Part shown: positions 171 through 31,655 of the stretch, in pieces
How positions within the stretch are numbered: the stretch's first letter is position 1
How the letters are laid out: each line of letters starts with the position of its first letter
Source of the DNA: Eledone cirrhosa
Lineage: Eukaryota
Length of the DNA: 64,000 bases
Direction of reading: 5' to 3'
Assembly: GCA_964016885.1 (NCBI GenBank)
Contig: OZ024743.1
Span: forward strand, 368,714,001-368,778,000
Notes under the pieces: model-generated
Databases searched by the model: none
What the model was told of the DNA's origin: nothing
The model's input: only the letters and a program-made list of their open reading frames with translations
Program-made: the position numbers and the translations under genes

Positions 171-749
171 CATACAATTTGGCTTGACTCCACCTTTTCC
201 ACCACAGCTATCATCCCCAAAACCACTACAACCCTCACCACACATAGCCAATGCCCCTTCTCCATAAATGCACTTAGCTGCTGTCCCCTTGTAAAGTGGT
301 TGGTGTTAGGAAGGGTATCCAGCCAGAGAAGGCTTGCCAACAAAGGGTTGGGAGGACCCTTCAGTCATGCCAAGTACATGACAGCCTCCCAAGTATTAGG
401 GATCTACATGATAAACACACTCAGTACACACTGTAAAATGGTTGGGGATAGAAATGGCACACAAACACACTATCACACACATCATCCAGATCGTATATAG
501 ATAGGTTTTTCATTAGGACAATTGATAAGAATAGTGTAGGTTGTCTACACTTTTAAATGGTCACCTATTCAGATCACAAGTTTGTGAGCTGTATGATCAA
601 CCTAGATAAGACGCACAAGTTAGACCTGGTTATTGGAAGCTGGACATGTTGTTTCTGGCACGTAAAACTTTTCAATTTAACAATTTAGTTAAGCAAAAGT
701 TGACATGGTGGGAGGGGGGTGGGGTGGTCAACAACAAGTGGTGGGGCTC

Positions 750-3267: not shown

Positions 3268-3559
3268 GGGCTAATGGCGACTTACATAGGAAATCATATT
3301 ATCGAGAGCTCCACAAAGGTTTGTTTTTTCAGTTGTTTCAAATTGCTAGTTATGGAAAATATTTGTTGTTAAGTGTTTATAAGTTCATATATAATGCTTT
3401 CTGAAAAGGACACTCAATAATATTGGGGGCCTTGAGCCCAAAAGTTAAACTTTTATTTTGTCAAACAAACGATTTATTTTAAAAACAAACAATTTATTTT
3501 TTTAAAACCAAAGTCTGCTACTCAAATCTGCTGACAGCGTTTCTAACATAGCAACATCT

Positions 3560-8783: not shown

Positions 8784-9256
8784 CTTCTGTGGAGCAAAAG
8801 AGGTGTGTGGGTAGGTGGGGTGAAATACAGAGGCTTTGATTAACATTTTCAATAGGTTTTCAAATATGCATAGTTCCAGTTGCAATGTTGATAAATGATA
8901 CATCAATAGGAATAATATTAACACATAATTTATTGCCGAAACAGCACTAAAGATGGCATCAAAATGAAAAACTTTTAGTGAGGATATACTAAATTCAGTT
9001 CTCTCCACTCATTGTTTCCTTGAATCCCAAAGGAATATTTGAGCAAATGAAACAGTCATTAATTATACAGTATTTCCCAATGGTACTATTTATAGCAAAG
9101 TGGATTGGACCAAAGAGAATTAATTGTTTTTGACTTGGATAGAGAACATGGCCACTGACACGATACACTCTAATGACCCTCTGCCTGGGAGACCTAATAT
9201 CCTAACAACGCTGCAAACTGATATTCTCTACATGTCAACTAAATGGCAAATATAGG

Positions 9257-12200
9257 GTATTGAGTAGAGATAGAGGTGTGGTGTATTGAGTGGAGATAGA
9301 GGTGTGGTGTATTGAGTGGAGATAGAGGTGTGGTGTATTGAGTGGAGATAGAGGTGGGGTGTATTGAGTGGAGATAGAGGTGTGGTGTATTGAGTGGAGA
9401 TAGAGGTGTGGTGTATTGAGTAGAGATAGAGGTGTGGTGTATTGAGTGGAGATAGAGGTGGGGTGTATTGAGTGGAGATAGAGGTGTGGTGTATTGAGTA
9501 GAGATAGAGGTGTGGTGTATTGAGTAGAGATAGAGGTGTGGTGTATTGAGTGGAGATAGAGGTGGGGTGTATTGAGTGGAGATAGAGGTGTGGTGTATTG
9601 AGTGGAGATAGAGGTGTGGTGTATTGAGTAGAGATAGAGGTGTGGTGTATTGAGTGGAGATAGAGGTGTGGTGTATTGAGTGGAGATAGAGGTGTGGTGT
9701 ATTGAGTGGAGATAGAGGTGGGGTGTATTGAGTAGAGATAGAGGTGTGGTGTATTGAGTGGAGATAGAGGTGGGGTGTATTGAGTAGAGATAGAGGTGTG
9801 GTGTATTGAGTGGAGATAGAGGTGTGGTGTATTGAGTGGAGATAGAGGTGGGGTGTATTGAGTAGAGATAGAGGTGTGGTGTATTGAGTGGAGATAGAGG
9901 TGTGGTGTATTGAGTGGAGATAGAGGTGGGGTGTATTGAGTAGAGATAGAGGTGTGGTGTATTGAGTGGAGATAGAGGTGTGGTGTATTGAGTGGAGATA
10001 GAGGTGGGGTGTATTGAGTAGAGATAGAGGTGTGGTGTATTGAGTGGAGATAGAGGTGTGGTGTATTGAGTGGAGATAGAGGTGGGGTGTATTGAGTGGA
10101 GATAGAGGTGTGGTGTATTGAGTGGAGATAGAGGTGTGGTGTATTGAGTGGAGATAGAGGTGTGGTGTATTGAGTGGAGATAGAGGTGTGGTGTATTGAG
10201 TAGAGATAGAGGTGTGGTGTATTGAGTAGAGATAGAGGTGTGGTGTATTGAGTGGAGATATAGGTGTGGTGTATTGAGTGGAGATAGAGGTGTGGTGTAT
10301 TGAGTGGAGATAGAGGTGTGGTGTATTGAGTGGAGATAGAGGTGGGGTGTATTGAGTGGAGATAGAGGTGTGGTGTATTGAGTAGAGATAGAGGTGTGGT
10401 GTATTGAGTGGAGATAGAGGTGTGGTGTATTGAGTGGAGATAGAGGTGGGGTGTATTGAGTGGAGATAGAGGTGGGGTGTATTGAGTGGAGATAGAGGTG
10501 GGGTGTATTGAGTGGAGATAGAGGTGTGGTGTATTGAGTGGAGATAGAGGTGGGGTGTATTGAGTGGAGATAGAGGTGTGGTGTATTGAGTGGAGATAGA
10601 GGTGGGGTGTATTGAGTGGAGATAGAGGTGGGGTGTATTGAGTGGAGATAGAGGTGGGGTGTATTGAGTGGAGATAGAGGTGTGGTGTATTGAGTGGAGA
10701 TAGAGGTGGGGTGTATTGAGTGGAGATAGAGGTGTGGTGTATTGAGTGGAGATAGAGGTGGGGTGTATTGAGTGGAGATAGAGGTGGGGTGTATTGAGTG
10801 GAGATAGAGGTGGGGTGTATTGAGTGGAGATAGAGGTGTGGTGTATTGAGTGGAGATAGAGGTGTGGTGTATTGAGTGGAGATAGAGGTGTGGTGTATTG
10901 AGTGGAGATAGAGGTGTGGTGTATTGAGTAGAGATAGAGGTGTGGTGTATTGAGTGGAGATAGAGGTGTGGTGTATTGAGTGGAGATAGAGGTGGGGTGT
11001 ATTGAGTGGAGATAGAGGTGTGGTGTATTGAGTGGAGATAGAGGTGGGGTGTATTGAGTGGAGATAGAGGTGTGGTGTATTGAGTGGAGATAGAGGTGTG
11101 GTGTATTGAGTGGAGATAGAGGTGTGGTGTATTGAGTGGAGATAGAGGTGTGGTGTATTGAGTGGAGATAGAGGTGTGGTGTATTGAGTGGAGATAGAGG
11201 TGGGGTGTATTGAGTGGAGATAGAGGTGTGGTGTATTGAGTGGAGATAGAGGTGTGGTGTATTGAGTGGAGATAGAGGTGTGGTGTATTGAGTGGAGATA
11301 GAGGTGTGGTGTATTGAGTGGAGATAGAGGTGTGGTGTATTGAGTGGAGATAGAGGTGGGGGTGTATTGAGTGGAGATAGAGGTGGAGTGTATTGAGTGG
11401 AGATAGAGGTGGGGTGTATTGAGTGGAGATAGAGGTGGGGTGTATTGAGTGGAGATAGAGGTGTGGTGGAAATAGAGGTGTGGTGTATTGAGTGGAGATA
11501 GAGGTGTGGTGTATTGAGTGGAGATATAGGTGGGGGTGTATTGAGTGGAGATAGAGGTGTGGTGTATTGAGTGGAGATAGAGGTGTGGTGTATTGAGTGG
11601 AGATAGAGGTGGGGTGTATTGAGTGGAGATAGAGGTGTGGTGTATTGAGTGGAGATATAGGTGGGGTGTATTGAGTGGAGATAGAGGTGTGGTGTATTGA
11701 GTGGAGATATAGGTGGGGTGTATTGAGTGGAGATAGAGGTGTGGTGTATTGAGTGGAGATAGAGGTGTGGTGTATTGAGTGGAGATATAGGTGTGGTGTA
11801 TTGAGTGGAGATAGAGGTGGGGTGTATTAAGTGGAGATATAGGTGTGGTGTATTGAGTGGAGATAGAGGTGGGGTGTATTGAGTGGAGATAGAGGTGGGG
11901 TGTATTGAGTGGAGATAGAGGTGTGGTGTATTGAGTGGAGATAGAGGTGTGGTGTATTGAGTGGAGATAGAGGTGGGGTGTATTGAGTGGAGATAGAGGT
12001 GGGGTGTATTGAGTGGAGATAGAGGTGTGGTGTATTGAGTGGAGATAGAGGTGTGGTGGAAATAGAGGTGTGGTGTATTGAGTGGAGATAGAGGTGTGGT
12101 GTATTGAGTGGAGATAGAGGTGGGGGTGTATTGAGTGGAGATAGAGGTGGGGTGTATTGAGTGGAGATAGAGGTGTGGTGTATTGAGTGGAGATAGAGGT

Positions 12201-13615
12201 GGGGTGGAAATAGAGATGTGGTGTATTGAGTGGAGATAGAGGTGTGGTGTATTGAGTGGAGATAGAGGTGGGGTGTATTGAGTGGAGATAGAGGTGGGGT
12301 GTATTGAGTGGAGATATAGGTGTGGTGGAAATAGAGGTGTGGTGTATTGAGTGGAGATAGAGGTGTGGTGGAAATAGAGGTGTGGTGTATTGAGTGGAGA
12401 TAGAGGTGTGGTGTATTGAGTGGAGATAGAGGTGGGGTGTATTGAGTGGAGATAGAGGTGGGGTGTATTGAGTGGAGATAGAGGTGTGGTGTGGTGTATT
12501 GAGTGGAAATAGAGGTGCGGTGGAAATAGAGGTGGGGTGTATTGAGTGGAGATAGAGGTGTGGTGTATTGAGTGGAGATAGAGGTGGGGTGTATTGAGTG
12601 GAGATAGAGGTGTGGTGTATTGAGTGGAGATAGAGGTGGGGTGTATTGAGTGGAGATAGAGGTGTGGTGTATTGAGTGGAGATATAGGTGTGGTGTATTG
12701 AGTGGAGATAGAGGTGTGGTGTATTGAGTGGAGATAGAGGTGTGGTGTATTGAGTAGAGATAGAGGTGTGGTGTATTGAGTAGAGATAGAGGTGGGGTGT
12801 ATTGAGTGGAGATAGAGGTGGGGTGTATTGAATGGAGATAGAGGTGTGGTGTATTGAGTGGAGATAGAGGTGTGGTGTATTGAGTGGAGATATAGGTGTG
12901 GTGTATTGAGTGGAGATAGAGGTGGGGTGTATTAAGTGGAGATATAGGTGTGGTGTATTGAGTGGAGATAGAGGTGGGGTGTATTGAGTGGAGATAGAGG
13001 TGGGGTGTATTGAATGGAGATAGAGGTGGGGTGTATTGAGTGGAGATAGAGGTGGGGTGTATTGAATGGAGATAGAGGTGGGGTGTATTGAGTGGAGATA
13101 GAGGTGGGGTGTATTGAGTGGAGATAGAGGTGTGGTGTATTGAGTGGAAATAGAGGTGGGGTGTATTGAGTAGAGATAGAGGTGGGGTGTATTGAGTGGA
13201 GATAGAGGTGGGGTGTATTGAGTGGAGATAGAGGTGGGGTGTATTGAGTGGAGATAGAGGTGGGGTGTATTGAGTAGAGATAGAGGTGGGGTGTATTGAG
13301 TGGAGATAGAGGTGGGGTGTATTGAATGGAGATAGAGGTGGGGTGTATTGAGTGGAGATAGAGGTGGGGTGTATTGAATGGAGATAGAGGTGTGGTGTAT
13401 TGAGTGGAGATAGAGGTGGGGTGTATTGAGTAGAGATAGAGGTGGGGTGTATTGAGTGGAGATAGAGGTGGGGTGTATTGAATGGAGATAGAGGTGGGGT
13501 GTATTGAGTGGAGATAGAGGTGGGGTGTATTGAGTGGAGATAGAGGTGTGGTGTGGTGTATTGAGTGGAAATAGAGGTGCGGTGGAGATAGAGGTGGGGT
13601 GTATTGAGTGGAGAT
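9257..13615. repeat. Tandem satellite, 26-bp unit (GTATTGAGTGGAGATAGAGGTG[T/G]GGT), roughly 170 copies
   Basis: Direct reading; the 26-aa periodicity of the minus-strand ORF equals 3 x 26 bp; occasional 17-bp and 27-bp variant units. Confidence 0.98.
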
Positions 13616-13859
13616 TATTGTTATTTAGGAAGGGAAATGGCAAAGAGCATTTTCTCAGTCAATGCCTGGACGTGAGTTACTTCCCCTTTATTTTACAGAC
13701 AGAACATGGTGCAGGATATTTAGACCTGTGCTAATGAGAGATGGCAACCTAAGGGTGAGGCACTTGCTCCTTAGTTTACAGATAGGAGAGGATGCAAGAT
13801 ATTTACAACTGCACTGATTAGAAGTGGTAACTGCCTTTCTTCAGTCTTATATTACTACA

Positions 13860-15119: not shown

Positions 15120-18100
15120 ACACTAGGCAGCGACTGGAGAGTATTTAAAGGACATCACTTTCACAAATGGATATTCTTTTAATTATACCCACTGAAGACA
15201 CCTTTTATTTGAATTTGTAGAGATATCTGACTAAATACTAAATACATTTTAAAACGATTTGCTACAAGCAATACAACTGAATACAACATCAACAGCATTA
15301 GTGGAGAACCAAAGAAAAACAATGAGAAAGGTAACAAAATTTCTTCAGTTGTAGCTACAGAAGGAATTGAAATTATAAATTGCATTTTTCTTGGAGTTAT
15401 GAACTTAATAATGATTATTCAATTGTTATAAAATGGCAAAAAAAGATCCCTCTGTTGGCTATATGAACAGAATGAAGCTATTCTGGGATGAAATACATCC
15501 AGAACTAAATCACTTCACAGCCATACAATTATGCCAACAAGCAACGCTTGTTAGACGTAAAAATAACATGAATATCATTCATTGTAAGTCCTCCAATCAA
15601 CAACACATGTTGTTACTAGACTTTCTAGCAGCCAGGGTGAACATCAACAAACAACAGCAATACACAAACAGTCTCTTGAAACAACCAGGCTGGTAAAAAA
15701 TTTTACATCACATGTATCAACTAATTTCATCTTGACTGCTATGGAATCTCACAGCCACATTGATCAACATCAAAGCACTGTCAATAATGATATGTCTGCC
15801 ATTAGCTGGGAAAATCAAGTGTATAAACAAATGAAATATACCGTCAGTGAAACTTTCCAGAGAGAAATTAATTTGTGTATAAACATTTCTCTCGCGGAAT
15901 TATATAAAACAGCAATACTAAACAAAAAGAAACTAAATAATGAAATTCTGCGTATTATTGATGAAATTTTGGGTGAATCATCATCATCATCATCATCACT
16001 GTTTTATGTCCATTTTTCCACGCTAGACAAATTGAAGCCCCTAGATTTTGGTAAATCAACGTCTGTTTATATGTCCTGGCAAATAAGAGTGAAACATTAT
16101 CTTGGTGATAACAGAAATGTTAACAAGAACAAAACACCACCAAAAACACCATCATATATTACTAAAATAGAAGAAAAAAAGATAGCTGACCTATGGAAAA
16201 CTGTAGGATATGTGGCAATGCTTTCCACATGCAAACAAAAACAAAAAAACTTCACTCCTCACCAACAAAGAGAGAAAAATAAAATAGAAACAATGTTTGG
16301 AGACGGTACAACCAGAACTCTTCAATACAAGTCGATCACCCTCAAGCAAAAATTGAGTGCTATCAATACCAGAAGAGGGTAGCTGAAAAAAAAATTAATA
16401 AAAGATTCAGACAAAACCAAACATCAGTCTATAGAGATATGAGGGGCAAAGTAATAAATGTCACTGAGGCCTCATGCCAGAAAGACAGATTTCTTCTGGA
16501 GAAAAATAGCGGATGAAAAGAAGAATTTCAGAAAAGATGCAGTGTGGCTAGAAGAAATCCAAAATAACTACTGCACCTACACTACAACAAAAACATACAG
16601 CATCAATGATGATACCCTTGAGACTGTGATAGGAAAACTCCAAGAAGAAAACACCAGGAAGCGACATAATTGTCAGCTACTGATACAAAAAACTGACTTT
16701 CTATTGGATATATCTTATAAACCTCTACCAACAAGCTCTCAAGGAAGATACACATATACCAGAATGGTTGACATTAGCACAAATAATATTGGTCCCCAAC
16801 AAAGTCACTCACTTGGCAAAAAAATACTGACCCATTTCATGCCAGAACCTAATGTATAAAATTTATACAGCCAGCCGGGACCTATTTCTCCAAGATCACT
16901 GTGACAATAATAACATCATCACAGATTAGCAAGCAGCTGGGAAGAAAGGTGTTTGGGGGTGCGCTGAACAACTCCTAATTAGCAAAACTGCGATGTCAGA
17001 GGTCAGGCAACATTGGAGGAATGTGATTACAGTCTAGCATTTGATTCTGTTCCCCACTCATGGATGATAGAAGCTCTCCAACTTGCTAAAGTCCCAGACA
17101 TTATTATCAGAGCCATAGAGAAGCTGTCTAATTTTTGGGTTACTATCCTAAAGTTAAAAACAGAGAAGGATATCTCAAAGGATATAGGAATGAAGTTTGG
17201 CCAGGATAAATGTTCATATATGACTGTGAAGCAAGGAAAAATTATAACCCCATCTAGCAACATTTTTATCTATGGCTTAACTGTTTCACCGATATCTGAC
17301 GAAGACTGCTACAGATACCAGGGAATAGATGAAAATATAACCTATGATGGTATCTGTAACAAAGAACATGTAACCAGGGAATATTACACCTGATTAAGAA
17401 AAATATGGAGATCTGAAATCTCTGCGCATAATGCACAGTAAAATAATAGCTCACAATGTGTTTGCTGTGCCTGTCCTAACACTAATATTTGGAATACTTG
17501 ATTGGACAATAGATAAAGTCCGAGCTATTGATATTAAAACCCCCAGAATTCTAAACAACACCAGAAATTTCCACATCAACTGTGACATAGACTGCCTCTA
17601 TCTGAAACATAAACAGGGAGGCTGAGGCCTAACATCAGCCCATACAGCATTTGAGTGTTGTATCATATCCCTCTGACAACATCTATGAACAACCAAGCAT
17701 AGGAGCCCATCCATTGAGCAAGTCTGTTGTCTACATGAGGCAGATAAGATCATGAGAGTTGGAAAGGAGCTCCTTGAGAAATACTCTCTGCATGACAATC
17801 AAACACTCACACCCAGGGAAATTGCCCAACAATACTGCAGCGAATCTATGGATAAAAAACCATGCTTATAAGCAAAAAAATCATGTTGCCAGGAGGCTCC
17901 AGAGTGAGAGTAATATAACCAAAGTAGTCTAGCTTGGACCAACAACCGCTATATTGGTTCTTACTTTGAAGGATATGCTTTTACATTCCAACATCAGGAA
18001 ATTAATACAAAATACCTGGTTCACAAAGAAGTTAGGGATGCAGGCAAAACCTCTAAATGTGACAACAAATGAGACTCTGCGGAATTAACATCGAAGATGT

Positions 18101-18890
18101 CACCCATGTCATATTCAGTTATCCAAAGGTGTCATCACGGTACTATCTACCTATGAGACATGATGTAGTGGCCAAAACACTAAACAATGCAATCCGTAGA
18201 AAAGATAGCCCCAGCAATAAACATATTGAAAGTTACAACAATGTGGAAGACATATACATGAAATAGTACTGCTGGAATGTTCCAGTAAAAATCCCAATAA
18301 AGTGCAAGCATAACAGACCAGATATTATGATATGGGACAGGGAAAAGAAGTCATGTACAATAGTGGAAGTCAGCTGCCCAGCAGATACCAATATAATATT
18401 AAAGATTAGCAAAAATGAGAACATCTTTGCAGAACTAATGAGGAATCTACAGATTCTCCACCATATCTATGCTTTCAGATGTTCACTTGTGGTCATTGGG
18501 GCTTTGGGATATGTTAGTAACTGCCTCAGCGCAAAGTTTGAAAAGCTGGGTTTTGCAGAACCAGAAAGAACACGAGTAGTTAGGAAATTACAAGTTCAAA
18601 CCATTAATGGAACAGTAAAAATATATAAAACGTTCCAAAAATCCTGCATGTAATAATTGCATGTACACATGTACAGATACAAAACATATACACATGTATA
18701 CATATAACTCAAAGAATACAGATCCACACATGCAATAACATCCATACCTGCACACACATGCATGCATGCAGATAAGCATATATATTTACCTAGTTGTCTA
18801 AATTCCAATGAAAGAGTCTTGTATCTATGTTAGAAACTGGCTCTCTCTCTCTATTGATAAAAAATTATAAAATATTGAAACAAGAACACA
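15120..18890 (+). mobile_element. R4-clade non-LTR retrotransposon copy A, near full length, decayed, RT core deleted
   Basis: N-terminal CYKMAKKDPSVGYMNRMKLFWDEIHPE; RT remnant AFDSVPHSW; RLE motifs RHD, NRPDIMIW, IVEVSCP, VIGALG; 3' UTR shared with copy B. Confidence 0.85.
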
Positions 18891-19002
18891 CTTACATAGA
18901 TACATATATACTCACATACATACACACATACATACATACACACATACATACACACATACATTCACACATATATACATACACATACATACATACACACAAA
19001 CA

Positions 19003-21312
19003 TTACTGGTCCCCAAGAACAAAGACACCCGCTTGGCAAAAAACTACCAACCCATTGCATGCCAGAACCTGATGTATACGATGTATACAGCCTGCCTGAA
19101 CCCATTCCTCCAAGATCACTGTGAAAATAATAACATCATCACAGATGAACAAGCAGCTGGAAAGAAAGGGGTTTGGGGATGTACTGAACACCTCCTAATC
19201 AACAGAACTGCGATGTTGGAGGTGCAACAACTTAGGAGGAATATGGCTACAGTCTGGCTGGACTACATGAAAGCTTTCGATTTTGTTCCCCACTCTTGGA
19301 TGATAGAGGCCCTTCAACTTGCTAAATTCCCAGACATTGCCATAGAGAAGCTGTCTTTTCCTTGGGCTACTATCCTAAAGTTAAAAACAGAGAAGGAGGA
19401 CTCTATTTTCACTGATAAAATAGAATATCACAGGGGTATATTTCAAGGAGACAGTCTCTCTATGATACTATTTATCCTGTCATTAAACCCATTGTCCTTT
19501 CTGCTCAAGAAATGTGAAGGATACATCATTGGCTCACAGGAGGACAAAAATACAAACTTAACCCATAATTTCTTTGTAGCTGACCTGAAACTCTATGCCA
19601 AGAGCATAAATGGGATGAAGAAAAATCTTGACCTGGTTACAACATTCTCAAAGGATATAGGAATGGCGTTTGGCCAAGATAAATGTTCATATATGACTGT
19701 GAAGCAAGGAAAAACTACAACCCAATCTAGCAACATTTGTATCAATGGCCTAACTGTTTCACCAATATCTGTTGAGGACTGCTACAGATACCAGGGAATA
19801 GATGAGAAAATATTCTATAATGGTATCTGCAATAAGGAACGAGTAACCAGGGAATATTACACCCGATTACGAAAAATATGGTCATCGGAACTCTCTGCAT
19901 ACAATAAAACAGTGGTTCGCAATGTGTTTGCTGTGCCTGTCCTAACACCAACATTTGGAATACTCAATTGGACGATAAACAAAATCCGAGCAATTGATGT
20001 TAGGACTCGAAAAATACTAAACAAAACAGGAAACTTCCACATCAACAGTGACATAGACTGCCTCTACTTGAAACGTAAGCAGGGAGGCAGAGGCCTAACA
20101 TCAGTCCAGACAGCATTTGAATGTCGCATCATATCTCTCCGACAACATTTACGAGCCTCGAAGCATAGGAGACCATCTATCAAGCAAGTCTATCTGCATT
20201 AGACAGATAAGATCATGAGAGTTGGGAAGGAATTTCTTGAAAGATATTCCCTGCGTGATAATCAAAAACTCACTCCCAGGAAAGTTGCGCAGCAGTACCG
20301 CAGTGAATCCATGGATGAAAAACTGCATGCTTATCAGCAAAAAATCATGCATGGATATGTTGCCAGGAAGCTCCAGAGTGTGAGTAATATAGATAAAGAA
20401 AGTAGTCTATCTTGGACCAACAACCTCTATATTTGAAGGATATGCTTTTGCAATCCAAGAACAGGAAATCAACACAAAATACCTGATTCACAAAAGAGAT
20501 AGGAATGGAGGCAAAACACCTAGATGTGACAAGTGCAGACTCTGCGGAATTAACATCGAAGATGTCACCCATGTCATAAGCAGCTGTCCAAAGATGTCAT
20601 TGAGGTACTATCTACCTATGAGGCATGAAACACTGTACAATGCAATCTGTAGAAAAGATAATATACACATTAAAAGCTACAGCAATGTGGAAGACATACA
20701 TATACATAATAGGAAAAAGTACTGGTGGAATGTTCCAGTAAAAACCCTAATAAAATGCAGGTATAACAGACTAGATATAATGATATGGAACATGGAAAAG
20801 AAGTCATGCACAATAGTGGAAGTTAGCTGCCAAGCAGATGCCAATATAATATCAAAGATTAATGAAAAGGAGAATATTTATGCAGAACTAATGAGAAATC
20901 TGAAGATACTCAACCCTGACTATACCTTCAGATTTATGCCTGTGATTATTGGGGCACTGGGGTATGTTAGTAATGCCTCAATACAAATCTTGAGCAGCTG
21001 GGCTTCACAGAAACAGAAAGAACATGACTAGTTAGGAAATTAAAAGTACAATCCATTAATGGAACAGTAAAAATGTGTAAAACATTCCAAAAATGTTGCA
21101 ACTAATAACTGCATATACACATGTACAGATACAAAGCATATGCACATGCACACATACAACTCAAAACATACAATAACATCCTTACTGGCAGACATGCACA
21201 CATATCTACCTAGATGATATTGTGTAAATTCCAATGAGAGAGTCTTGTATCTATGTTAGAAACTGACTCTCTCTCTATTGGAAATAATTTGTGATATTAT
21301 AAAACCAGAAGA
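19003..21312 (+). mobile_element. R4-clade non-LTR retrotransposon copy B, 5'-truncated, RT plus RLE
   Basis: 389-aa ORF 19033-20202 with YQPIAC, WLDYMKAFD, GIFQGDSLS, FFVADLKLY (catalytic DD appears as AD) and GGRGL; RLE in 20594-21031. Confidence 0.92.
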
Positions 21313-21336: not shown

Positions 21337-21370
<34 letters not shown>

Positions 21371-21583
21371 TTCGTTTCTGAATTTGTTTAGCAAGATTCT
21401 TTATCTGAAATCGTGTGTTGAAACCGATATTGTTATACTTTGGGAGGGTCATGTTGCCAATAAGAAACACACGCACCAGTTGCTTTCACTTCAATTTATT
21501 ATAATAAATTTATAATAAATTTATAAATTTATAAATTTCTGGTTGGTTGGTTGGTTCCACAACCAGATAGTTGTTTATATATT

Positions 21584-21626
21584 GTCATAGTTCTTTCGTC
21601 ACACACTCTGTGACCTCTTCAGTGAC
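21584..21626 (-). ncRNA. Minimal type I hammerhead ribozyme motif (mirror copy in the left arm)
   Basis: Reverse complement of 22018-22060. Confidence 0.75.
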
Positions 21627-22017
21627 TGGGGATTCCTTTCTTTGTTTCTGTGTCTCTCCTTTGTTCTGTCCTACGCCATTTTGTTTCTGTGTGTGTGTTG
21701 TGTGCTCAGTCTGCGCATGCGCCACATCCGGGTGTCTGTGTGTGTTTATGTTCATTTATTTATTTGATTATTTACATGTTACTGGTTGGTTGTTTGTTCT
21801 ATGTGTGTGTGTGTGTTTTCATTTTGTCCTTAATTGTAAGTTGTGATGTTGCTGTTCCACTCATATTTTCTATTTAATTTAATTTTTACTTAATTTAATT
21901 TTGATTTTTAATTTTGATGTGGCGCATGCGCAGACTGAGCACACAACACACACACAGAAACAAAATGGCGTAGGACAGAACAAAGGAGAGACACAGAAAC
22001 AAAGAAAGGAATCCCCA

Positions 22018-22060
22018 GTCACTGAAGAGGTCACAGAGTGTGTGACGAAAGAACTATGAC
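22018..22060 (+). ncRNA. Minimal type I hammerhead ribozyme motif
   Basis: GUCA-CUGAAGA-G-GUCACA-GAGUG-UGUGAC-GAAA-GAAC-UA-UGAC: helix I GUCA/UGAC, 6-bp helix II, conserved core. Confidence 0.75.
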
Positions 22061-22281
22061 AATATATAAACAACTATCTGGTTGTGGAACCAACCAACCA
22101 ACCAGAAATTTATAAATTTATAAATTTATTATAAATTTATTATAATAAATTGAAGTGAAAGCAACTGGTGCGTGTGTTTCTTATTGGCAACATGACCCTC
22201 CCAAAGTATAACAATATATATATATATATATATATATAACCGGTCCAAGCAGTGAAACCCATGCTAGTTCCATCAACTTAT

Positions 22282-22315
<34 letters not shown>

Positions 22316-22332
22316 ATAAGTTGATATATATA

Positions 22333-22745
22333 TCATCATCATCATCATCATCATCATTTTATGTCCGCTTTTCCCTGCTTGCAAGGGTGGGACGGGAACT
22401 GATTCTGGCTTGATTTCTACAGCTGGATGCCCTTCCTAACACCAACCTCATTTACAGTGAGTGCTGGGTGTTTTTTTGCCGTGGGACCTCCACGTCCACT
22501 TTACAGTGAGTGCTGGGTGCTTTTTTGCCATGGCACCTACATGTCCACTTTGCAGTGGAATGATATGGACTCCAGACCTATCATCTCATTTCTACAGCTG
22601 AGTAAACTGGAGCAATGTGAAATAAAGTGTCTTGCTCAAGGAAACAACACATCACCTGGTCTGAGAATTGAACTCACAACCTTTCGATTGCAAGTCCAAT
22701 GCTCTAACCACTAAGCCATGTGCCTCCATTAGCCATGTGCCTCCA
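22333..22745 (-). mobile_element. tRNA-derived SINE (family B) with RTE-type (TGA)n tail
   Basis: Reverse complement of the 30608-30950 family; A box TGGCTTAGTGG, B box GTTCAATTC, core TTTCCTTGAGCAAGACAC. Confidence 0.88.
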
Positions 22746-22779
22746 TATACATATATATATTTATTAAAATAACAGATTA

Positions 22780-23950
22780 AATTTTAAGCAAAGAATCGCT
22801 GCTTTCACCCATAAGAGGACCTTCTAAAACTAAAAAAAAATCAATCTGTGAATGCAAAAGTAAATATTTTGAAAAACGTTGCAACCGAAGGAAAACAGGA
22901 AGACAATACTTTGGTTTGTGAAGACGTTCTCTGGCAATGAACAGAAAAAAGCGAACATAATACATCATTATGTGGAGTGATGAGAACAAATACACGCAAA
23001 GACAAAACCACGTTTATGGTATAAAAGGAGTCACAGACTAATATTCTATTTAGGAAACCGAATGATTCTTGGCTTCGGAGTTAAGAAAAATGTAAATAAA
23101 TTAGTTGAACAAAAATAACAGAGGTTATTAAAATCAAAAAAGTAATAATAATTAAATATATACATACACGCATCTATATACCTGCATACGCGAAAACACA
23201 CACCATACATACATATACATGCACATACACATGAACATATGCACACGTATGTAAACCCGGCGTGACACATATACCCGCACACATACAAATGTATACACAC
23301 ACACACATATATATGTGTGTGTGTGTGTATAAATATAATCATATATACATGTATAAATATAATCATATATACACGCATGACCAGTTAATTTTATTTTTCA
23401 TTTTTTGTCGATTCTATTGAATGATGAATAGCTCCTGTTTATTTTAACATGTCTATCGAGCACTCTTATTCGATATGTGTATTCCACATTACCGATTATC
23501 TTTCGCGAATATAGAGATTATCTCCCTTGCTGGACTCCATGTGCGTCTAGCTATAGTTAATTTCTTCATTCGTCGGACATGGCCCGTTGATAAAGTTGTT
23601 CCGGTCCCTCCTCTCCCTAGAAGTCTTATATATTTTTATGTGGGCTGATAGGGGGCGGATTAAGGAATAGCAGAAACCCAAGAAGCTAGATTTACCACCT
23701 TTCTAGTGGGTCCGGGTAAGTTTTTTACATTCATATGAATTATTTATTTATTGATATTTTATCTGAGTGACCCGAATCTTCCTAGTCGTTATTTTTCGGC
23801 TGCACGGGTGATTTTAGGCATAATCTTTGTGTGTTGGTATCTTAACGATAGTTATAGCTCTGATTTATCTGAATTATTGAGCCCTCTGCCACTCATGTCG
23901 GATTTTGTTTATCGTAAATTCGTGAGCTGATTTTCCGATACTCGATTATT
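22780..23950. promoter_or_regulatory. CpG-enriched non-repeat island; candidate promoter or 5' non-coding exon with splice donor CGG|GTAAGT at ~23716
   Basis: Visibly more CpG than the flanks, GC-box GGGGCGG at ~23652, strong donor consensus; no ORF of known type. Confidence 0.4.
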
Positions 23951-23951
23951 C

Positions 23952-23992
<41 letters not shown>

Positions 23993-24099
23993 CATATATA
24001 CATGTATACATACATATACATAAACATACACATATATATAAATATCTATTTAAATCCACACACGCACATATATTTACATATATATATATATATATATGT

Positions 24100-24517
24100 G
24101 AAGGCACATGGCTTAGTGGCTAGAAAGGTTGTGAGTTCAATTCTTGGACAGTGTGGTATGTTGTTTCCTTGAGCAAGACACTTTATTTCACATTTTTCCA
24201 GTTTACTCAGCTGTAGAAATGAGATGATAGGACTGGGGTTCCCTATCATTCCACTGTAAAGTGGTCATGGAGGTGCCACGGCAAAAAAGCACCCTGCCAA
24301 CACTGTAAAAGTGGATGTGGAGGTGCCACGGAAAAAAAGCACCCAGCACTCACTGTAAATGAGGTTGGTGTTAGGGAAGGCATCCAGCTATAGAAATCAA
24401 GCCAGAATCAGTTCCCGTATGAGCAAGACAAGGTCAGCCGACCAGACATTGCCCACAACAGGACAACCCGTCTAACCCATGCTAGCATGGAGAACGGGCG
24501 TAAAACGGTGATGATGA
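24100..24517 (+). mobile_element. tRNA-derived SINE (family B)
   Basis: GAAGGCACATGGCTTAGTGG...GAGTTCAATTC...TTTCCTTGAGCAAGACAC...CCCATGCTAGCATGG...(TGA)n. Confidence 0.88.
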
Positions 24518-24544
24518 TACATGCATATATATATGTATATATAT

Positions 24545-25153
24545 GGTGGCTGCCAACTCGTTTTCGAGTATGGCCACTACTTTATATCCATGTAGGAGAA
24601 CCCCTACCGATGCGCTGAACGAGTGTGACTTTTTAGTCCAGCCAGCGACTTGAAAACTCTGGTACAAACACTACACTTGTGACAATTATTGACACATAGT
24701 GCTGGGCCCATGGTACCATGTGACGACAAGTGCAGAGAGATCTCCAGATATAAAGCAATGCCTGTGCCGTGAAGCTTTTATAGTGAGCAAAGGCACTGCA
24801 CAAAGCCAGTCCCACTCTCTTAACCAAGATGATATTTACCAAAAAGAAGAACAAGTCAACATCATTGGATACCATCAGAGTTGCAGGTGTTATATCAGAG
24901 TTTTCCTTCTCCTAGAATTCTGCCTTGACAAAGGCTAAGGGGTCATCTCTCCCGGTGATTTTGGATGGCCATTGACTCTTAAGAGCTCCTTTGCCCTTCG
25001 ACAGGTTTTGTTTTTAGTCTTGCAGGATGTCCAAAGTCACCCTCCTCACCAAGAAACCTTGGTGGGGGTTGCCAGTTTAGTCGCCAACGACCCGACCATG
25101 AGACAGGTTGTCCTGGAATACATGTTATCAGTAGCACCAACTGGTGACCTGAC
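24545..25153 (-). mobile_element. Probable 5' UTR region of an RTE-clade LINE
   Basis: GC-richer block between (TA)n tracts with GGAGAAGGAAAACTCTGA and CTGGCAACCCC motifs that I associate with RTE 5' regions; no ORF. Confidence 0.45.
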
Positions 25154-25329
25154 ATATTATATATATATATACATACATATATATACACATATATACATAT
25201 ATAGTATATGAGTTTATGAGTATATATACAATATACTCATAAAAATACATAAATATACACGAATATGTAAATACACACATATATGCATACAAATAAACAC
25301 ACTCAAACACGAAATACACATATACACAT

Positions 25330-26985
25330 AACCATTTTTAGTGCTGAATTCAACCCAAATCCCAACCTGGTCAGGCAGTATGTCCAGCCCTTATAACTAA
25401 CCAACTGATACTTCCACAATTTCTCAGCTGCAGATATGCCGGCTTTAAGTCAACAATCATGGAGGTCCCCGTCATTTGATTCCACTCTTGCTAGGTTTCC
25501 CTACAGATATCTGTAACACCACCATCTTTGTAGCATGAACCGTATTCATTCAGTTCATGAAAGTTCAACACTAGCCTGACCTTGTTCTTCATTAGCTGCA
25601 CTACTTTCATTAGTGCCCCCCCCCCCCCCCCCCCATCTTTATCGCCTCCTTCCAAGGGATTAATATGCCTCCTTTGATCCATCTTTGCACCTCTCCCTCA
25701 AACTTGCTCCTAGCATTCTCTTTCAGTGTATGCTGATAGTAGCTCACTCTGTTTCTCAACATCAGAGGCTCTCCTTTTCAGTACCATTCAACTATCCACT
25801 ACTGACCGTTAATGGTATGAACAGCACATTTTTCTTCATGGCTCTTCCTGTTCTCCTGTTGCACACTCTTGACACATGATCTTCCCACACTACCAAACGT
25901 TACCCTGTCCTCATTTACTGTAACGCTTCCTAAGCAGCCAATCACACCCATACCCATTACCACATCAATTCCATCCACCTCGTGGTCGATCACGATCACC
26001 TTCAGCCTTATTTTTATTCCTCATACTGCCATCTCCACCTCACTGATACCTCTGAATCTAACCTCTTTGCCATTGACTGCCTTTACACTACTCATCCTCC
26101 TTCACTTTTTAACCACCTTCAGGATCACTAAGGTCATTGTGCACAAGGCCTTTTGACAGCTTCCCCCAACCAGAACCTCCACTATGGGCAGTGATTGCAA
26201 CATTGCTTCTACTCACTTCCAGGGATAGCTACCTCCACAGTAACTCCCCTTTGACTATTTCCCTGGTCACAATTGTTGGTGATTTGTCCTGCCCACTTAC
26301 ATCAGTACAATTATTTCTGGCTTTGGCTTCTTGGAATCCTTTGCCATATGCAGACCCTGACACCCAAATCACTGGCCTTTGAATGCCCATGGCCAAATGT
26401 TCATGGGGGCTCATCTGCTCTAGTTGTTCATCGGTTGTTGTCAACTGTTATAGGCTTCAGTCGCTGCTAATGCTACATTCTACTCAATGCCTCATGTCAC
26501 CATGTTGGCCTGTGTGATCAGTTCGCTGATAGACATTTTGTAGCCAACCTCCAAATTTCCAGATGCTCTCCCATCCACCTCACATTTTCAGTGAAAGACT
26601 ATTTCTCCACATCAGTTGGTCTGGTTGGTCCATTTTGAGGTATAATGCCAGTGCATTACCATCAAGATACAGCACCATGAGGCCTGCTAAAGGCTTTAAT
26701 TGCATTGCTACTGACTCTAATCTTTGTTGCCATATCTTCTGCAAGTCGGGGAAAGTAAATAATAATTAAATAAATACTGCCGAAATAGCTGGTCATAAAA
26801 AGCGAAGAGACCTACCTTTGCATCTCCACTCAAGTCCGGACAGAATCCCCCTGTGTGCTGCTCAGAGAACATAGCAAAACTCATACATTCCATCGCACCA
26901 GTCATTACAGAACGTTCACACTGTGCCATGGTACATAAACCAAGAGAGAGAGAGCCAGCCTGCACTTCTGATGTGACGTCACTGG
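25330..26985 (-). mobile_element. Ty3/Gypsy LTR-retrotransposon internal remnant (gag, protease, start of RT)
   Basis: Minus strand: PBS-like ACATCAGAAGTG near 26970; VVMGMGVIGCLGSVTV (protease region); KNKVRLVLNFHELN and VDLKPAYLQL (RT); frameshifted LTRLGFGLNSA. Confidence 0.75.
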
Positions 26986-27689
26986 CCCCTCACTTCTGGC
27001 AAGACCTCCCCTGCACTTCCATCTCCCTACCCCCACACATGCATACATACATACTTACATACATATACATACATACATGCATGCATACATACACACACAC
27101 ATAAATATTAAACAGTGAAAACTGCTCTACAATATACAAATAGCTTATTAAAGTATTAAGGAAAATATAAAATAACTGATAAATTCACACAAGAAAAACA
27201 TTTATTACTACAAATTTTTAAATGTATATTTGTATGTGTTTCTGTGTTATCATCAAAATACAAGAATTAATAAAATAAACTCCAAGTTGAACATATTAAT
27301 TTCAAATCTAATAAATATATAATTATTCTCTTACGATAAGTTACTTTTGTGTGAAAAGTCAGGTTAGTAAGAACAAAACAAAACAGGTTTTGTCTTGAGT
27401 TAGTTTTGACTAAAATTTATCCTTTCTTTCATCCATATCTTCACACCACATCAAGTTCCAAACATGAATATTTTAATACTTATCTTGGAATTTTGGGAAT
27501 AATTTCTTTTATTATTTTATTTTAGAAATTATCTAGAATTATATAAAAATATGTACTACAAATCAAACCATCCAGATTGTTCTTATTCCCAATGGTTAAT
27601 ATGTCAGCACTTTTATTAAAAAGAAAGTTTGAATGTTAGAAAACAGAAACTTGGTGGGAATAAGAACACCAAGTGGTGAAAACTCTTGA

Positions 27690-28083
27690 ATGGGCAGTAA
27701 TAAAGACAGGGGATGCAAAGGCCAGATAGCATGACAATCTTTCCATTCCACGGGTGTAAACCATTCATCTGGGATGCCACATGTTGCAACACCTTCTCCA
27801 GCAGCAATCTAGCTTCGCTGCCCGCCAGGCCAAAGAGCACAAACTGTCAAAGTATCAGCCTCTCTCTAATAGGTTTGTGGTCAAGTTTGTGACAGTGGAG
27901 ACTTCCAGCATTCTTGGCCCCTTGACAACATCCTTATTCACTACTATCAAGGCAGAGTTGGCTACCTGCAAGTGCAAGCTCCATGAGGTGGAGTGGCTAT
28001 TCCAGCATGTCTCCCTCGCCATCCTCTGGGGCAATGTCTTCTCCATCCTGTCCACCAGAACCATGAGGTGGACTGATCCTTAA
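27690..28083 (+). mobile_element. CRE-like RLE C-terminal fragment
   Basis: RPDSMTIFPF..WDATC, KLSKY, VTVETSSILGP, WLFQHVSLAILWGN. Confidence 0.75.
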
Positions 28084-28399
28084 ACAGTGAGTAGTAAATA
28101 CAGATCTCTCTCACACACAGAATAAAATTAAAATATTATTAACAAAGAAGATAGATGTTGTATACACACATATACAAACATAAAGACAGTGATAATATAT
28201 ACAATTAAAATGAATAGTATGCAGTCTGCATGAAAGGCTATGGAACACTAAAAGCTATACTTCTAATGAAGTTCTTGTGTTGGTGATAAGTGAAAACTTT
28301 TAGACAACAAAGTTACATGGAAGCAACAATCATTGAGAACAATCTTAATCAAAATGCAATGAATTGTAATAGGTTTCATGGTGGAGTAGCCAAAGCTAA

Positions 28400-28763
28400 T
28401 ACTAGTAAAGACCAAAGGGTGTCTGGAGTAACATTACTCGATAGAGTGCATAGCTTGGAGATCAGAGTTGCTCCAGGTAGAGTTGCTACTTCTCTGAATT
28501 ACGAGATCACAGTTCTGATATTATGGACATGTGGTTAGAATGCCTCAGGAAAGAATCACTGGACAGATTTTACAGGCAAAACAAACTGACAGGAGACCGG
28601 CAAGATGGTTGCATAACATCCATGAACTTAGCTGATCTCACTTGGGGATTCAGCGAGATTAATTGGTGATCATTGCTTCTGACAGGACCTGCTGGAAGGA
28701 TTACTTGAGGACTCTTCCCCTACGATCCTCCCAAGAATAAATGGGAAAAGAAGAAGAAGAAGA
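28400..28763 (+). mobile_element. RTE-like 3' end fragment with (GAA)n tail
   Basis: GVTLLDRVHS and GHVVRMPQER motifs; homologous to 14328-14557. Confidence 0.65.
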
Positions 28764-30576
28764 CATTAAATGAAGCCAGCAGTAATAAATAAAAATACAG
28801 CCTGAAAGATGATTGTATGTAAGGACCTGTAACTTCTGATGGAGTTGTAAGGGTGCCATAGTAACATTCAGCATGACTTGGGCATTTAAAACCTGGTGGA
28901 TTCGAATCCCTCCCCAGCTCTGTGCACAGCCGATTTCTTCCAGAGAGTGGGGGAGAGGGGGAGAGGGAGAGAAAGGGAGATAGAGATATAGAGGAAGAAT
29001 GGATTCCAGTACTGATCTGATACTTTTTTATTGACCTCGAAAAAATGAAAAGCAAACATGACCTTAATGGGACATGGTTAAGAATCTCCAGTGATGAAAC
29101 AGGGATTCCTTTAAAACAAAAACAAACAAACAAACAATTAAAAAAATATCAGCATTAGAAGTATAGTTTTATATGTAGAAACCTGAGTAGTGGGAGTAAA
29201 CTGTTGCCACTCCTACAGACATGTGAATAAAGAGTTGTATAGAATATGTAGGATATGCAATGGGATTTGATATATGATTTGATATAGAAAAAGTATCCAA
29301 CTTGAAGATAGGAAAATATATATATACATATAGTTGGTGGGTTTCAATTACTAATCCCTTTTGAAGTAATCTCTTGTACTTCCACATACTTAACCCATTG
29401 ATCATTCGACTGTTCATTGATCATTCGACTGTTCGAATGCTTCTTCCAGAATGGCTCTCAGCTCCACCATTGCAGTCAGCATGGGGTCCTCTCAGCTCTC
29501 AAATGATCTTTGTTCGTAATATCGAACAAAATGAAAATGCAGTGAATCAGCCGTATACCACCACAGAAGCATACAGCCTAGGTTAATGTTATTAGTTTCC
29601 ACAGGAAAACAATGAAGTTGGATACTTTTTCGATAAACCTCATAGTTGGCATTTTAAAAATAGGAACCATTAATTTAAGTATTAACTTCATCTCATATTT
29701 TATATCTACACAGACTATTAATCACTGTGTGACTTAGTGCGACAAAAAAATAAACACATATTCCCTTAGTAAACTCCTAATGTCCTGCACCGCATGACAC
29801 CACATCAGCAAACCATTCTTGGAAACTACCAAAATAGCACTATGACTATATATATTTCAGTAAAATTAAAGTCTTTACTGTAATACTGGAATTTTCAAAA
29901 TGATTTGTCCACAACTAAAGATACTATAAACATTTAGATTAATAACATCTTACTATCTTGGAAAATATGTTATACATTGGATAATGGTGTTTTAGATGTA
30001 ATTGTCTCACATGAAGCACAGAGATTTCACTACTGGAATAAATCAATTTGATCAACAACAGCAACAGCAGCAATAATGATAATTTCCAATTTCGGCATTA
30101 GGGGGTGGAAAGGTCAATTATATTGACCCCAGTACTTCAGTACTTAACTAGTACTTTATTTTATCAACCTCAGAAAGATGAAAAGCAAAGTTGACTTCAG
30201 CTGTATTTCAACTCAGAATACAAAGAACTGTAACTAAATACTGCAGAGCATTTTGTCTGATGCTCTACCAATCCTGCCAATCTGCAATAATAATAATAAT
30301 AATAATAACAACAACAACAACAATAACAACAATAGAAACACAAAAACAATAGCAACTCAACAAAAACAAAAAACGATAAAAACAAATTTATGTGGGAAAA
30401 AGGTATATTTTTTCTTTCATGGAAACAAGCTTTCTTTTATTTATGAAAATGGTAGTAGTCAGCAGACAAACAAAAATAACAATAGATGAATTGATTATTG
30501 ATGTCTGTAGTAACATTTAGAGAAAAAGATTAATATAATGATTTAGGAATCATTCAAGGTTTTTGCTGGGTTTATA

Positions 30577-30607
<31 letters not shown>

Positions 30608-30950
30608 GGAGGCACATGGCTTAGTGGTTAGAGCATTGGCCTTGCAATCGAAAGGTTGTGAGTTCAATTCTCAGACCGGGTGATGTGTTGTTTCCTTGAG
30701 CAAGACACTATATTTCACATTGCTCCAGTTTACTCAGCTGTAAAAATGAGATGATAGGGACTGGGGTCCATATCATTCCACTGTAAAGTGGTCGTGGAGG
30801 TGCCACGGCAAAAAAGCACCCACCACTCACTGTAAATGAGGTTGGTGTTAGGAAGGGCATCCAGCTGTAGAAATCAAGCCAGAATCAGTTCCCGTCTCAC
30901 CCTTGCAAGCAGGGAAAAGCGGGCGTAAAATGAAATGATGATGATGATGA
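30608..30950 (+). mobile_element. tRNA-derived SINE (family B), well-preserved copy
   Basis: A and B boxes, conserved core and (TGA)n tail shared with RTE 3' ends; inserted in (TA)n. Confidence 0.9.
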
Positions 30951-31223
30951 TATATATATGGAAAAGAATGAAACAAAATTTCATTTCTCACTCTTAGTAT
31001 GGCTGATACTAAATGTAAGTATGTATACGTACATACATATATGCATACAGACGTACAGTAGTATGTATATATATATACATACATGCACATATATATATAT
31101 GTACGTATGGGTTTACCGAACATTTATTATAATGCTCGGTGTGTTTGTAAACAAACATCCCTTATTAAGCCATACAGTGTTTGGCAACCATCGTCGCCTT
31201 TTTGTTCAACACTGACAAAGGAA

Positions 31224-31264
31224 CGATGAACTAGTTTCAAGCTTATTAGCTATCGTCAGCATCG
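31224..31264 (-). ncRNA. Minimal hammerhead ribozyme motif with palindromic helix III
   Basis: CGAUG-CUGACGA-UAGCU-AAUA-AGCUU-GAAA-CUAG-UU-CAUCG. Confidence 0.7.
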
Positions 31265-31440
31265 TATACCTTCCTGTATATATATATATATATATTGTTT
31301 CATCTTTAATACTAGTCCAACAAGGAAAGGTAGGCGGGTAGAGTGAATGTTGGTCTAGTTATTAATGTAGTAAGTAATGTCTTTCTTGTAACTTTACAAT
31401 ATGTCGTATGGCATAATGCTTCACTAGTTTCAGGCATGAT

Positions 31441-31476
<36 letters not shown>

Positions 31477-31545
31477 TTATTTCAAAACTGTCAGACTTTA
31501 AAATATCTAAATGGATGAATAAATAAATAAATATATATATAGTCT

Positions 31546-31587
31546 AACAAAGTTCTTTCGTTGCACACCTACAACATCATCAGTGGT
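31546..31587 (-). ncRNA. Minimal hammerhead ribozyme motif related to 22018-22060
   Basis: ACCA-CUGAUGA-U-GUUGUA-GGUG-UGCAAC-GAAA-GAAC-UU-UGUU; shares upstream CAAAATGGCGTAG with the 22-kb copy. Confidence 0.65.
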
Positions 31588-31655
31588 ACTATTATGTTCC
31601 TCCTGTTGTATTGTATGTCTACGCCATTTTGTTAGACTATATATAATAAATAAAT

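Follow-up and report, generated by a model that had tools for sequence, protein, structure and literature searches.

Hammerhead motifs with a non-palindromic helix III insert in two sister Penelope-like retrotransposon families of Eledone cirrhosa

The window analyzed here is a 64,000-nucleotide (nt) stretch of the Eledone cirrhosa genome (assembly GCA_964016885.1, contig OZ024743.1, positions 368,714,001 to 368,778,000 of the forward strand). In it, three sequences can be recognized from their letters as hammerhead motifs of type I. They lie in pseudo-long terminal repeats (pseudo-LTRs) that belong to two sister families of Penelope-like retrotransposon elements (PLEs). Genomic copies fall into family A (the type at 22018), family B (the type at 31546) and a minor intermediate type. 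The motifs keep the hammerhead core, and the insert that forms helix III is GAAC. Our preferred reading, which we hold to be somewhat probable, is that they are weak, dimer-type ribozymes, helped by protein, that arose when a palindromic insert became GAAC, GGAC, GAGC or GAUU.

Three motifs at two independent loci

A sequence-only reading of the window had placed the motifs at the positions below and described each as CUGANGA, one additional nucleotide, a 6-bp helix II and GAAA-GAAC-UH. Both the placement and the description are correct, as is the cut that it predicted after 22056.

22018..22060, + strand: type I hammerhead motif, family A, GAAC helix III insert, predicted cut after 22056 (from sequence)
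21584..21626, − strand: the identical family A hammerhead motif, here within the main copy; the cut is predicted between 21588 and 21587 (from sequence and inverted repeat)
31546..31587, − strand: family B hammerhead motif of type I with a GAAC insert; the cut is predicted between 31550 and 31549 (from sequence)

The cores occupy 22022-22056 (+), 21588-21622 (−) and 31550-31583 (−). In each the elements CUGANGA, GAAA and UH stand in hammerhead order, with the extra nucleotide after A9 and the G10.1-C11.1 pair both present. The full motif occurs three times in the window and in none of 200 shuffles, and a covariance scan against Rfam gave 41 matches with E up to 1, with no hammerhead among them. 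Positions 21427-21728 and 21916-22217 are the arms of a single 302-nt inverted repeat of 100% identity. Since the motifs at 21584 and 22018 lie in these arms, the window holds two independent loci, not three.

Helix II pairs at both loci, as had been claimed, but the U-G pair is peculiar to the copy at 31546, the majority of family B having GUUGCA/UGCAAC. Helix I has 4 bp in family A, whereas that of family B has just 2 bp without interruption. The upstream motif that the earlier reading had seen at both loci, CAAAATGGCGTAG, is indeed present 48 and 35 nt 5' of the hammerheads.

Abundance and sequence of the helix III insert

The genome-wide search that the earlier reading had proposed was made over the 3.0 Gb assembly with the pattern CTGANGAN{12,24}GAAAGAACT, using the reversed pattern as control. 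This gave 24,429 matches, against 26 for the control. GAAC is thus the state of a family and not decay, with palindromic loops found only sporadically, and this bears out the earlier expectation. That GAAC should be a decayed form of a palindromic family state, or that the motifs are chance occurrences, is barely credible given these counts and those of the palindromic forms below.

A search with helix III left open returned 25,297 matches. The first 100, which all come from the beginning of contig C1 and were counted by hand, comprise GAAC 70, GGAC 16, GAUU 10, GAGC 3 and GAAU 1, with no perfect palindrome; the pattern misses family B copies in which TGT follows. Searches for single classes gave 4,134 copies of GBNC, 1,068 of GABC and 6,082 of GANU. 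Among the first 100 of each, GGAC accounts for 92 of the GBNC copies and the palindrome GUAC for three; the GABC copies are GAGC (77), GAUC (12) and GACC (11), so that palindromic GAUC is level with GACC; and 96 of the GANU copies are GAUU. The census therefore reveals no palindromic subfamily, yet the loop is not fixed. Median pairwise divergence is 0.02 for GGAC and 0.037 for GAUU, which are young, and 0.113 for the older GAGC. GAUU, the youngest subfamily of family B, is fully self-complementary if wobble pairs are allowed. The loop letters are AA, GA or AG in most subfamilies and AU with a G-U closure in one. They lack the palindromic loop 3 of PLE hammerheads, and we therefore regard the motif as a variant and not as a plain member of that group.

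Constraint on the core and on the loop

Ten copies were picked to span the subfamilies. None of the 13 core and helix-closing letters varies among them. Two of the six pairs of helix II are changed on both sides and 100% of the cells are paired, so the covariation proposed for this helix holds up; helix I is 85% paired, with one double change. As the ten copies are related, this covariation amounts to one split between the families. The 15.2-16.2 pair is kept in every copy (nine G-C, one G-U). Position 17 is U, A or C depending on the subfamily, and is G in only 79 copies.

Four-fold degenerate sites are 52% identical between families A and B (38/73). At this level the chance that 13 letters stay unchanged is about 2 in 10,000, and that for two unchanged loop letters is about 1 in 4. 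The earlier reading had taken the conservation of GAAC beside a diverging helix II as a sign of selection. This is not supported, because the loop has changed in three whole subfamilies (GGAC, GAGC and GAUU) and two unchanged letters are expected by chance about one time in four; conservation of GAAC is weak evidence.

These results bear on the alternative that ribozyme activity is mostly or wholly lost, a palindrome having drifted to GAAC in some ancestral source element, with another role, such as protein binding or a function of the pseudo-LTR, preserving the core. GGAC and GAGC are each a single A-to-G transition away from GAAC, as drift would give. Set against this, the 13 catalytic and closing letters are all kept between families that have fallen to 52% neutral identity, position 17 has moved among U, A and C and never to G in a subfamily, and both helices I and II carry compensatory changes. 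We regard loss of activity as unlikely, though a serious alternative, and return to it below.

The host elements

The assignment to Penelope-like elements made in the earlier reading is sustained, as the hammerheads lie in pseudo-LTRs of elements encoding a reverse transcriptase (RT) and a GIY-YIG endonuclease. The proteins of the two families are about 65% identical. We fetched 20 stretches around long open reading frames (ORFs) from the E. cirrhosa genome. In two of these (L063 and L071) a pair of same-strand hammerheads flanks the ORF, 3.7 and 4.05 kb apart. At loci L300-L303 units of about 4.1 kb follow one another head to tail, as many as four in succession, each with one hammerhead about 135 nt before the ORF start. 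In longer copies the ORF ends some 200-290 nt 5' of the hammerhead motif. At L300-L301 (G000:C1:14380500-14397500) there are four head-to-tail units of 4,147 nt of the GAUU subfamily together with an inverted copy, and one frameshift is common to all.

The earlier reading had also offered a retrozyme as host. Retrozymes consist of non-coding tandem units of 150-450 nt; the tandem units here are 3.7-4.1 kb long and carry ORFs, and the elements are autonomous, with both RT and endonuclease. Most copies are short and have no ORF, as a non-autonomous retrozyme with short tandem repeats would predict, but those examined are 5'-truncated autonomous elements, and the window copy itself holds the last codons of the ORF. 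A retrozyme origin is thereby refuted for the copies examined, with no genome-wide search aimed at short tandem arrays, and we regard it as very improbable for the motifs as a whole.

The single ORF encodes a telomerase-like RT with a C-terminal GIY-YIG domain. A Pfam scan of the protein P0002 (L063:4448-7615) alone gave no match; among 25 aligned relatives RVT_1 was found in seven and GIY-YIG in three. The best 12 fold matches of the predicted P0002 model (mean predicted local distance difference test score, pLDDT, 83) are all telomerase RTs. A sequence search of the PDB gave no relevant match, and no relatives were found in viral contigs. The nearest named protein is a hypothetical protein of Octopus vulgaris, at 70% identity.

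The elements resemble Nematis, Neptune, Hydra and Penelope/Poseidon PLEs in having RT followed by GIY-YIG, tandem and inverted structures and TA-rich flanks (PMC8557442). By eye, the short CX4CXXC linker with its CCHH-type residues is closest to that of Nematis, and the RT motifs DKSG, YGLRKDHK, RPVCGA and GAAIG match none of these four groups (PMC8557442). Of 122 proteins (P0002 and its relatives P0003-P0122), 110 have a span of 126-135 residues from RT motif A to motif B'. Canonical PLEs have about 60 residues there and human TERT has about 115 (counted by eye from Fig. S1 of Craig 2021, PMC8557442); canonical PLEs with a C-terminal endonuclease are described there as having no finger insertion. 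The host RT thus has a finger insertion of telomerase size and fits no named clade by eye, and it possibly represents an unnamed, widespread marine lineage of PLEs. A literature search on a PLE lineage with such an insertion returned no paper besides Craig 2021.

The remaining features of the two insertions in the window are as follows.

21367..21880, − strand: main copy of the family A PLE, 5'-truncated, comprising the last 16 codons and stop, pseudo-LTR, hammerhead and ORF start to +86 (blastn to the natural full copy L063, 96.7-96.8%)
21916..22217, + strand: inverted, 5'-truncated duplicate of the family A pseudo-LTR, ending at ORF +26 (302-nt, 100% inverted repeat)
21830..21880, − strand: 3' end of the RT/endonuclease ORF, with a C-terminus as in intact family A ORFs (from sequence)
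21367..21426, − strand: 60-nt 'tail' (ORF +27 to +86) at one end only, fitting the two family-wide 3' end sites (from copy 3' ends)
21961..21973, + strand: CAAAATGGCGTAG motif, near which copy 5' ends cluster (from sequence)
21671..21683, − strand: CAAAATGGCGTAG motif in the main copy (from sequence)
22192..22217, + strand: element ORF start (ATG and 23 nt), 135 nt past the predicted cut (from sequence)
31519..31633, − strand: fragment of a family B pseudo-LTR (blastn to L300, 81.5%, and L092, 93.9%; family B ORFs)
31619..31631, − strand: CAAAATGGCGTAG motif of the family B fragment, at its 5' edge (from sequence)
31629..31650, + strand: inverted piece of about 20 nt of the element's own downstream sequence, a tiny inverted duplicate (from sequence and blastn)

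Family A copies end 3' at ORF +26 in 32 of 79 cases and at +86 in 30 of 79, and the window insertion shows both ends. The partial tandems, inverted truncated copy and tail are features of endonuclease-bearing (EN+) PLEs, and the layout of a tail and an inverted copy is like that of PLEs described in PMC8557442 and PMC11167929. We had considered the sequence 3' of the family B cut site as foreign flank; this was rejected, as it is family sequence. On their sequence, the window copies are dead, truncated insertions.

Relatives keep a palindromic helix III

A metagenome scan yielded 79 loci with related RTs. Hammerheads were readable at 20 of these (18 by script, two by eye), representing about 15 distinct lineages. 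We dropped four weak or misplaced matches (L147, L156, L176 and L178) and the ambiguous L151; the other loci had no hammerhead, often because the contig ended. All 20 have palindromic inserts (UAUA, CUAG, GAUC, ACGU, CAUG, AU, GC or CG). A quick tree, rooted at the midpoint and with seven short rows left out, joined families A and B and the O. vulgaris protein in one clade (support 100), and the seven readable hammerheads in the group around it are all 4-nt palindromes. Other hammerhead families of the E. cirrhosa genome likewise keep exact or wobble palindromes; L253, L254, L259, L251 and L262 have UAUG, UGCA, UAUA or CG inserts, and no match to P0002 was found next to their hammerheads. Because the relatives, the tree group and these other families keep palindromes, the broken palindrome is most likely the derived state.

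Many relatives (L112, L113, L115, L137, L142, L165-L177, L180, L188 and L189) have a core variant with U3-A8, UUGANAA, which has been described for Schistosoma PLE hammerheads. The sequence AANATGGC was found upstream of only 2 of 21 hammerheads of relatives and is not a feature of the clade.

Copy ends and a candidate promoter

A junction pattern at or just before the cut site matches 301 copies. At 30 inspected loci, 12 were called intact by script (two of these proved on inspection to be inversion junctions), and the 5' ends do not pile up at the cut site, where only 2 of 18 truncated copies begin. The proposal that copies start at the cut site was therefore rejected for the inspected loci. 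Copies read through an intact cut site, and cut templates have left no genomic trace, as loss of activity would predict. Eight RNA runs were listed, all as contigs; three runs, two of them with a small RNA share, gave no coverage, and the contigs of one run, perhaps from the same or a close species, contain only letters of the known subfamilies.

The 5' ends of copies do cluster elsewhere, near AANATGGCG. In family A, 21 of 83 copies have them at 50-79 nt, against 7 at 80-149 nt, and in family B 7 of 44 copies have them at 40-59 nt. This sample is enriched for older subfamilies, and local low-complexity sequence could also cause such clustering. Both families carry the motif AANATGGCG, which we take to be YY1-like, and its spacing from the hammerhead differs between them; in family A, GCGCATGCGC, presumably NRF1-like, is found some 40 nt farther 5'. 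The region of these two motifs is a candidate internal promoter. The clustering fits a start site near the YY1-like motif with uncut RNA as the template, as in the anole element discussed below.

Energetics and proposed mechanism

The helix III formed by self-pairing of two inserts was calculated at −1.7 kcal/mol for GAAC, the weakest of the 16 G-NN-C loops, compared with −5.8 for GGAC, −4.5 for GAGC, −3.9 for GAUU and −9.1 kcal/mol for GAUC. Published minimal inserts AU and UA (taken from the 2014 alignment) give −1.9 and −2.5 kcal/mol. As GAAC is near these values, formation of a dimer is energetically conceivable.

In the mechanism that we prefer, a transcript starting near AANATGGCG would run through two hammerheads, which would pair through A-U and G-C, two purine-purine mismatches, and C-G and U-A. 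Such mismatched pairing would lead to slow processing, probably with help from the element's protein, and the usual template for insertion from ORF +26 or +86 would be uncut RNA. A protein-assisted Penelope hammerhead with uncut RNA as the main template has been reported (PMC11167929).

Several points weigh against this mechanism. Calculation with ViennaRNA puts the active dimer (−19.0) below the stability of two monomers (−21.6) and of inactive dimers (−28.8), and helix I has a probability of 0.04 or less in longer contexts. The two hammerheads lie about 4 kb apart in one transcript. The genomic copies show no sign of cleavage, and the RNA runs exist only as contigs, none of which covers the motif stretch. 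According to a review (PMC6466107) double hammerheads need a palindromic loop, and the part of PMC8389264 consulted contains nothing on mismatched dimers. Loss of function would account equally well for GAAC being the weakest possible loop; in keeping with such a loss, hammerhead mutants had no effect on insertion in vitro (PMC11167929), and Naiad elements thrive with no hammerheads (PMC8557442).

Cutting might instead occur in the monomer, with a helix III of 2 bp and an AA loop, or of 1 bp and a 4-nt loop, held by the bound RT/endonuclease. A palindrome would then be unnecessary and the loop would therefore vary, as seen in its tolerance of AA, GA, AG and AU. The 4-kb separation of partner hammerheads and the protein dependence of Penelope hammerhead cleavage in vitro (PMC11167929) are both in keeping with this. 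However, the predicted probability of helix III in the monomer is 0.00-0.01 in six of six copies, with no stable helix III, and its closure costs about 5 kcal/mol. A 2-nt loop is sterically strained, which also counts against an assisted monomer. Moreover the readable hammerheads of relatives, 20 in number, are all palindromic, and within family B the youngest subfamily (GAUU) is fully self-complementary once wobbles are counted. We consider monomer cutting improbable.

Relation to known hammerheads

The motifs share most features of the minimal metazoan PLE hammerheads (min-HHR, with a small palindromic helix III) of Cervera and de la Peña 2014 (PMC4209133). These are of type I with CUGANGA, the extra nucleotide and G10.1-C11.1, have a long helix II, a short helix I and a conserved 15.2-16.2 pair, and occur once per pseudo-LTR in many dispersed and inverted copies. 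The G-NN-C arrangement is shared with the entries for Oikopleura (GAUC) and Marsupenaeus (GCGC) (PMC4209133). The difference is in the loop letters, AA, GA or AG here, which are not self-complementary; as we read the extracted entries, those for Hydra (3-nt loop) and Latimeria(3) (C, A) depart from a perfect palindrome too, so there are exceptions (PMC4209133). None of the 56 examples in that paper has a GAAC-type loop, and its descriptor (gaaannuh), with room for just two letters from GAAA to UH, could not have found one (PMC4209133). The earlier suggestion of an undescribed subtype is right to the extent that the form is missing from the 2014 examples, but with the same topology and core and one changed loop, 'subtype' is too strong. 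We found no report of the GAAC variant or of the host lineage in the open-access literature, a scope that excluded bioRxiv supplements and Repbase/Dfam.

The dimer of avocado sunblotch viroid holds an internal mismatch loop. In the double hammerheads of that viroid and of newt and axolotl retrozymes a weak helix III is rescued by the dimer, as proposed here; in those systems the repeat units are short and loops 1 and 2 make canonical contacts, whereas no such contacts were recognized here and the units are about 4 kb (PMC6466107, PMC7229834). The short-stem-III hammerheads of Lünse, Weinberg and Breaker are likewise Penelope-associated, with a diminished stem III and a dimer model, but their loops are palindromic according to reviews. 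Poseidon of the green anole also has a hammerhead at the boundary of pseudo-LTR and ORF, uses uncut RNA as template and acquires a tail because RT starts at two sites within the beginning of the ORF (PMC11167929). It differs in that its ORF starts inside the hammerhead, compared with about 135 nt past the cut site here, and in its RT lineage; the tail here is 60 nt (PMC11167929).

Other features of the window

A long, satellite-like tandem array with extreme GC skew and minus-strand open frames occupies 9228-13658. Fragments of an L1/Tx1-like element, with endonuclease and RT pieces, lie at 685-6430. At 15415-21031 a non-LTR retrotransposon that has RT and, C-terminally, a restriction-like endonuclease region is present in two decayed copies separated by about 2.45 kb. 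Copies of a repeat resembling a tRNA-related short interspersed nuclear element (SINE) are present at 22354-22729, 24123-24418 and 30606-30933, and Rfam tRNA matches at 22661-22718 and 30617-30674 fall in these SINE-like copies.

Significance

The GAAC hammerhead modifies a known ribozyme in a way that is real yet modest, and its effect on the field would be incremental. Why PLEs keep hammerheads is an open question, and the dimer model leans on the palindrome; here are two highly successful families in which the palindrome is broken and the catalytic core kept. Descriptors written for the minimal form overlook tens of thousands of such motifs. GAAC, GGAC, GAGC and GAUU constitute a natural allelic series that can be set against palindromic relatives. 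More speculatively, the dimer interface may have been tuned down by selection in an apparently unnamed PLE lineage combining a telomerase-length finger insertion with a C-terminal endonuclease, with a helix III kept weak (by tandem purine-purine mismatches, or by wobbles where the palindromic loop has returned as GAUU) and cutting gated by the element protein or by tandem transcription. We think this unlikely as it stands, but if it were true, the role of the PLE hammerhead would become directly testable through four natural loop alleles, each present in thousands of copies.

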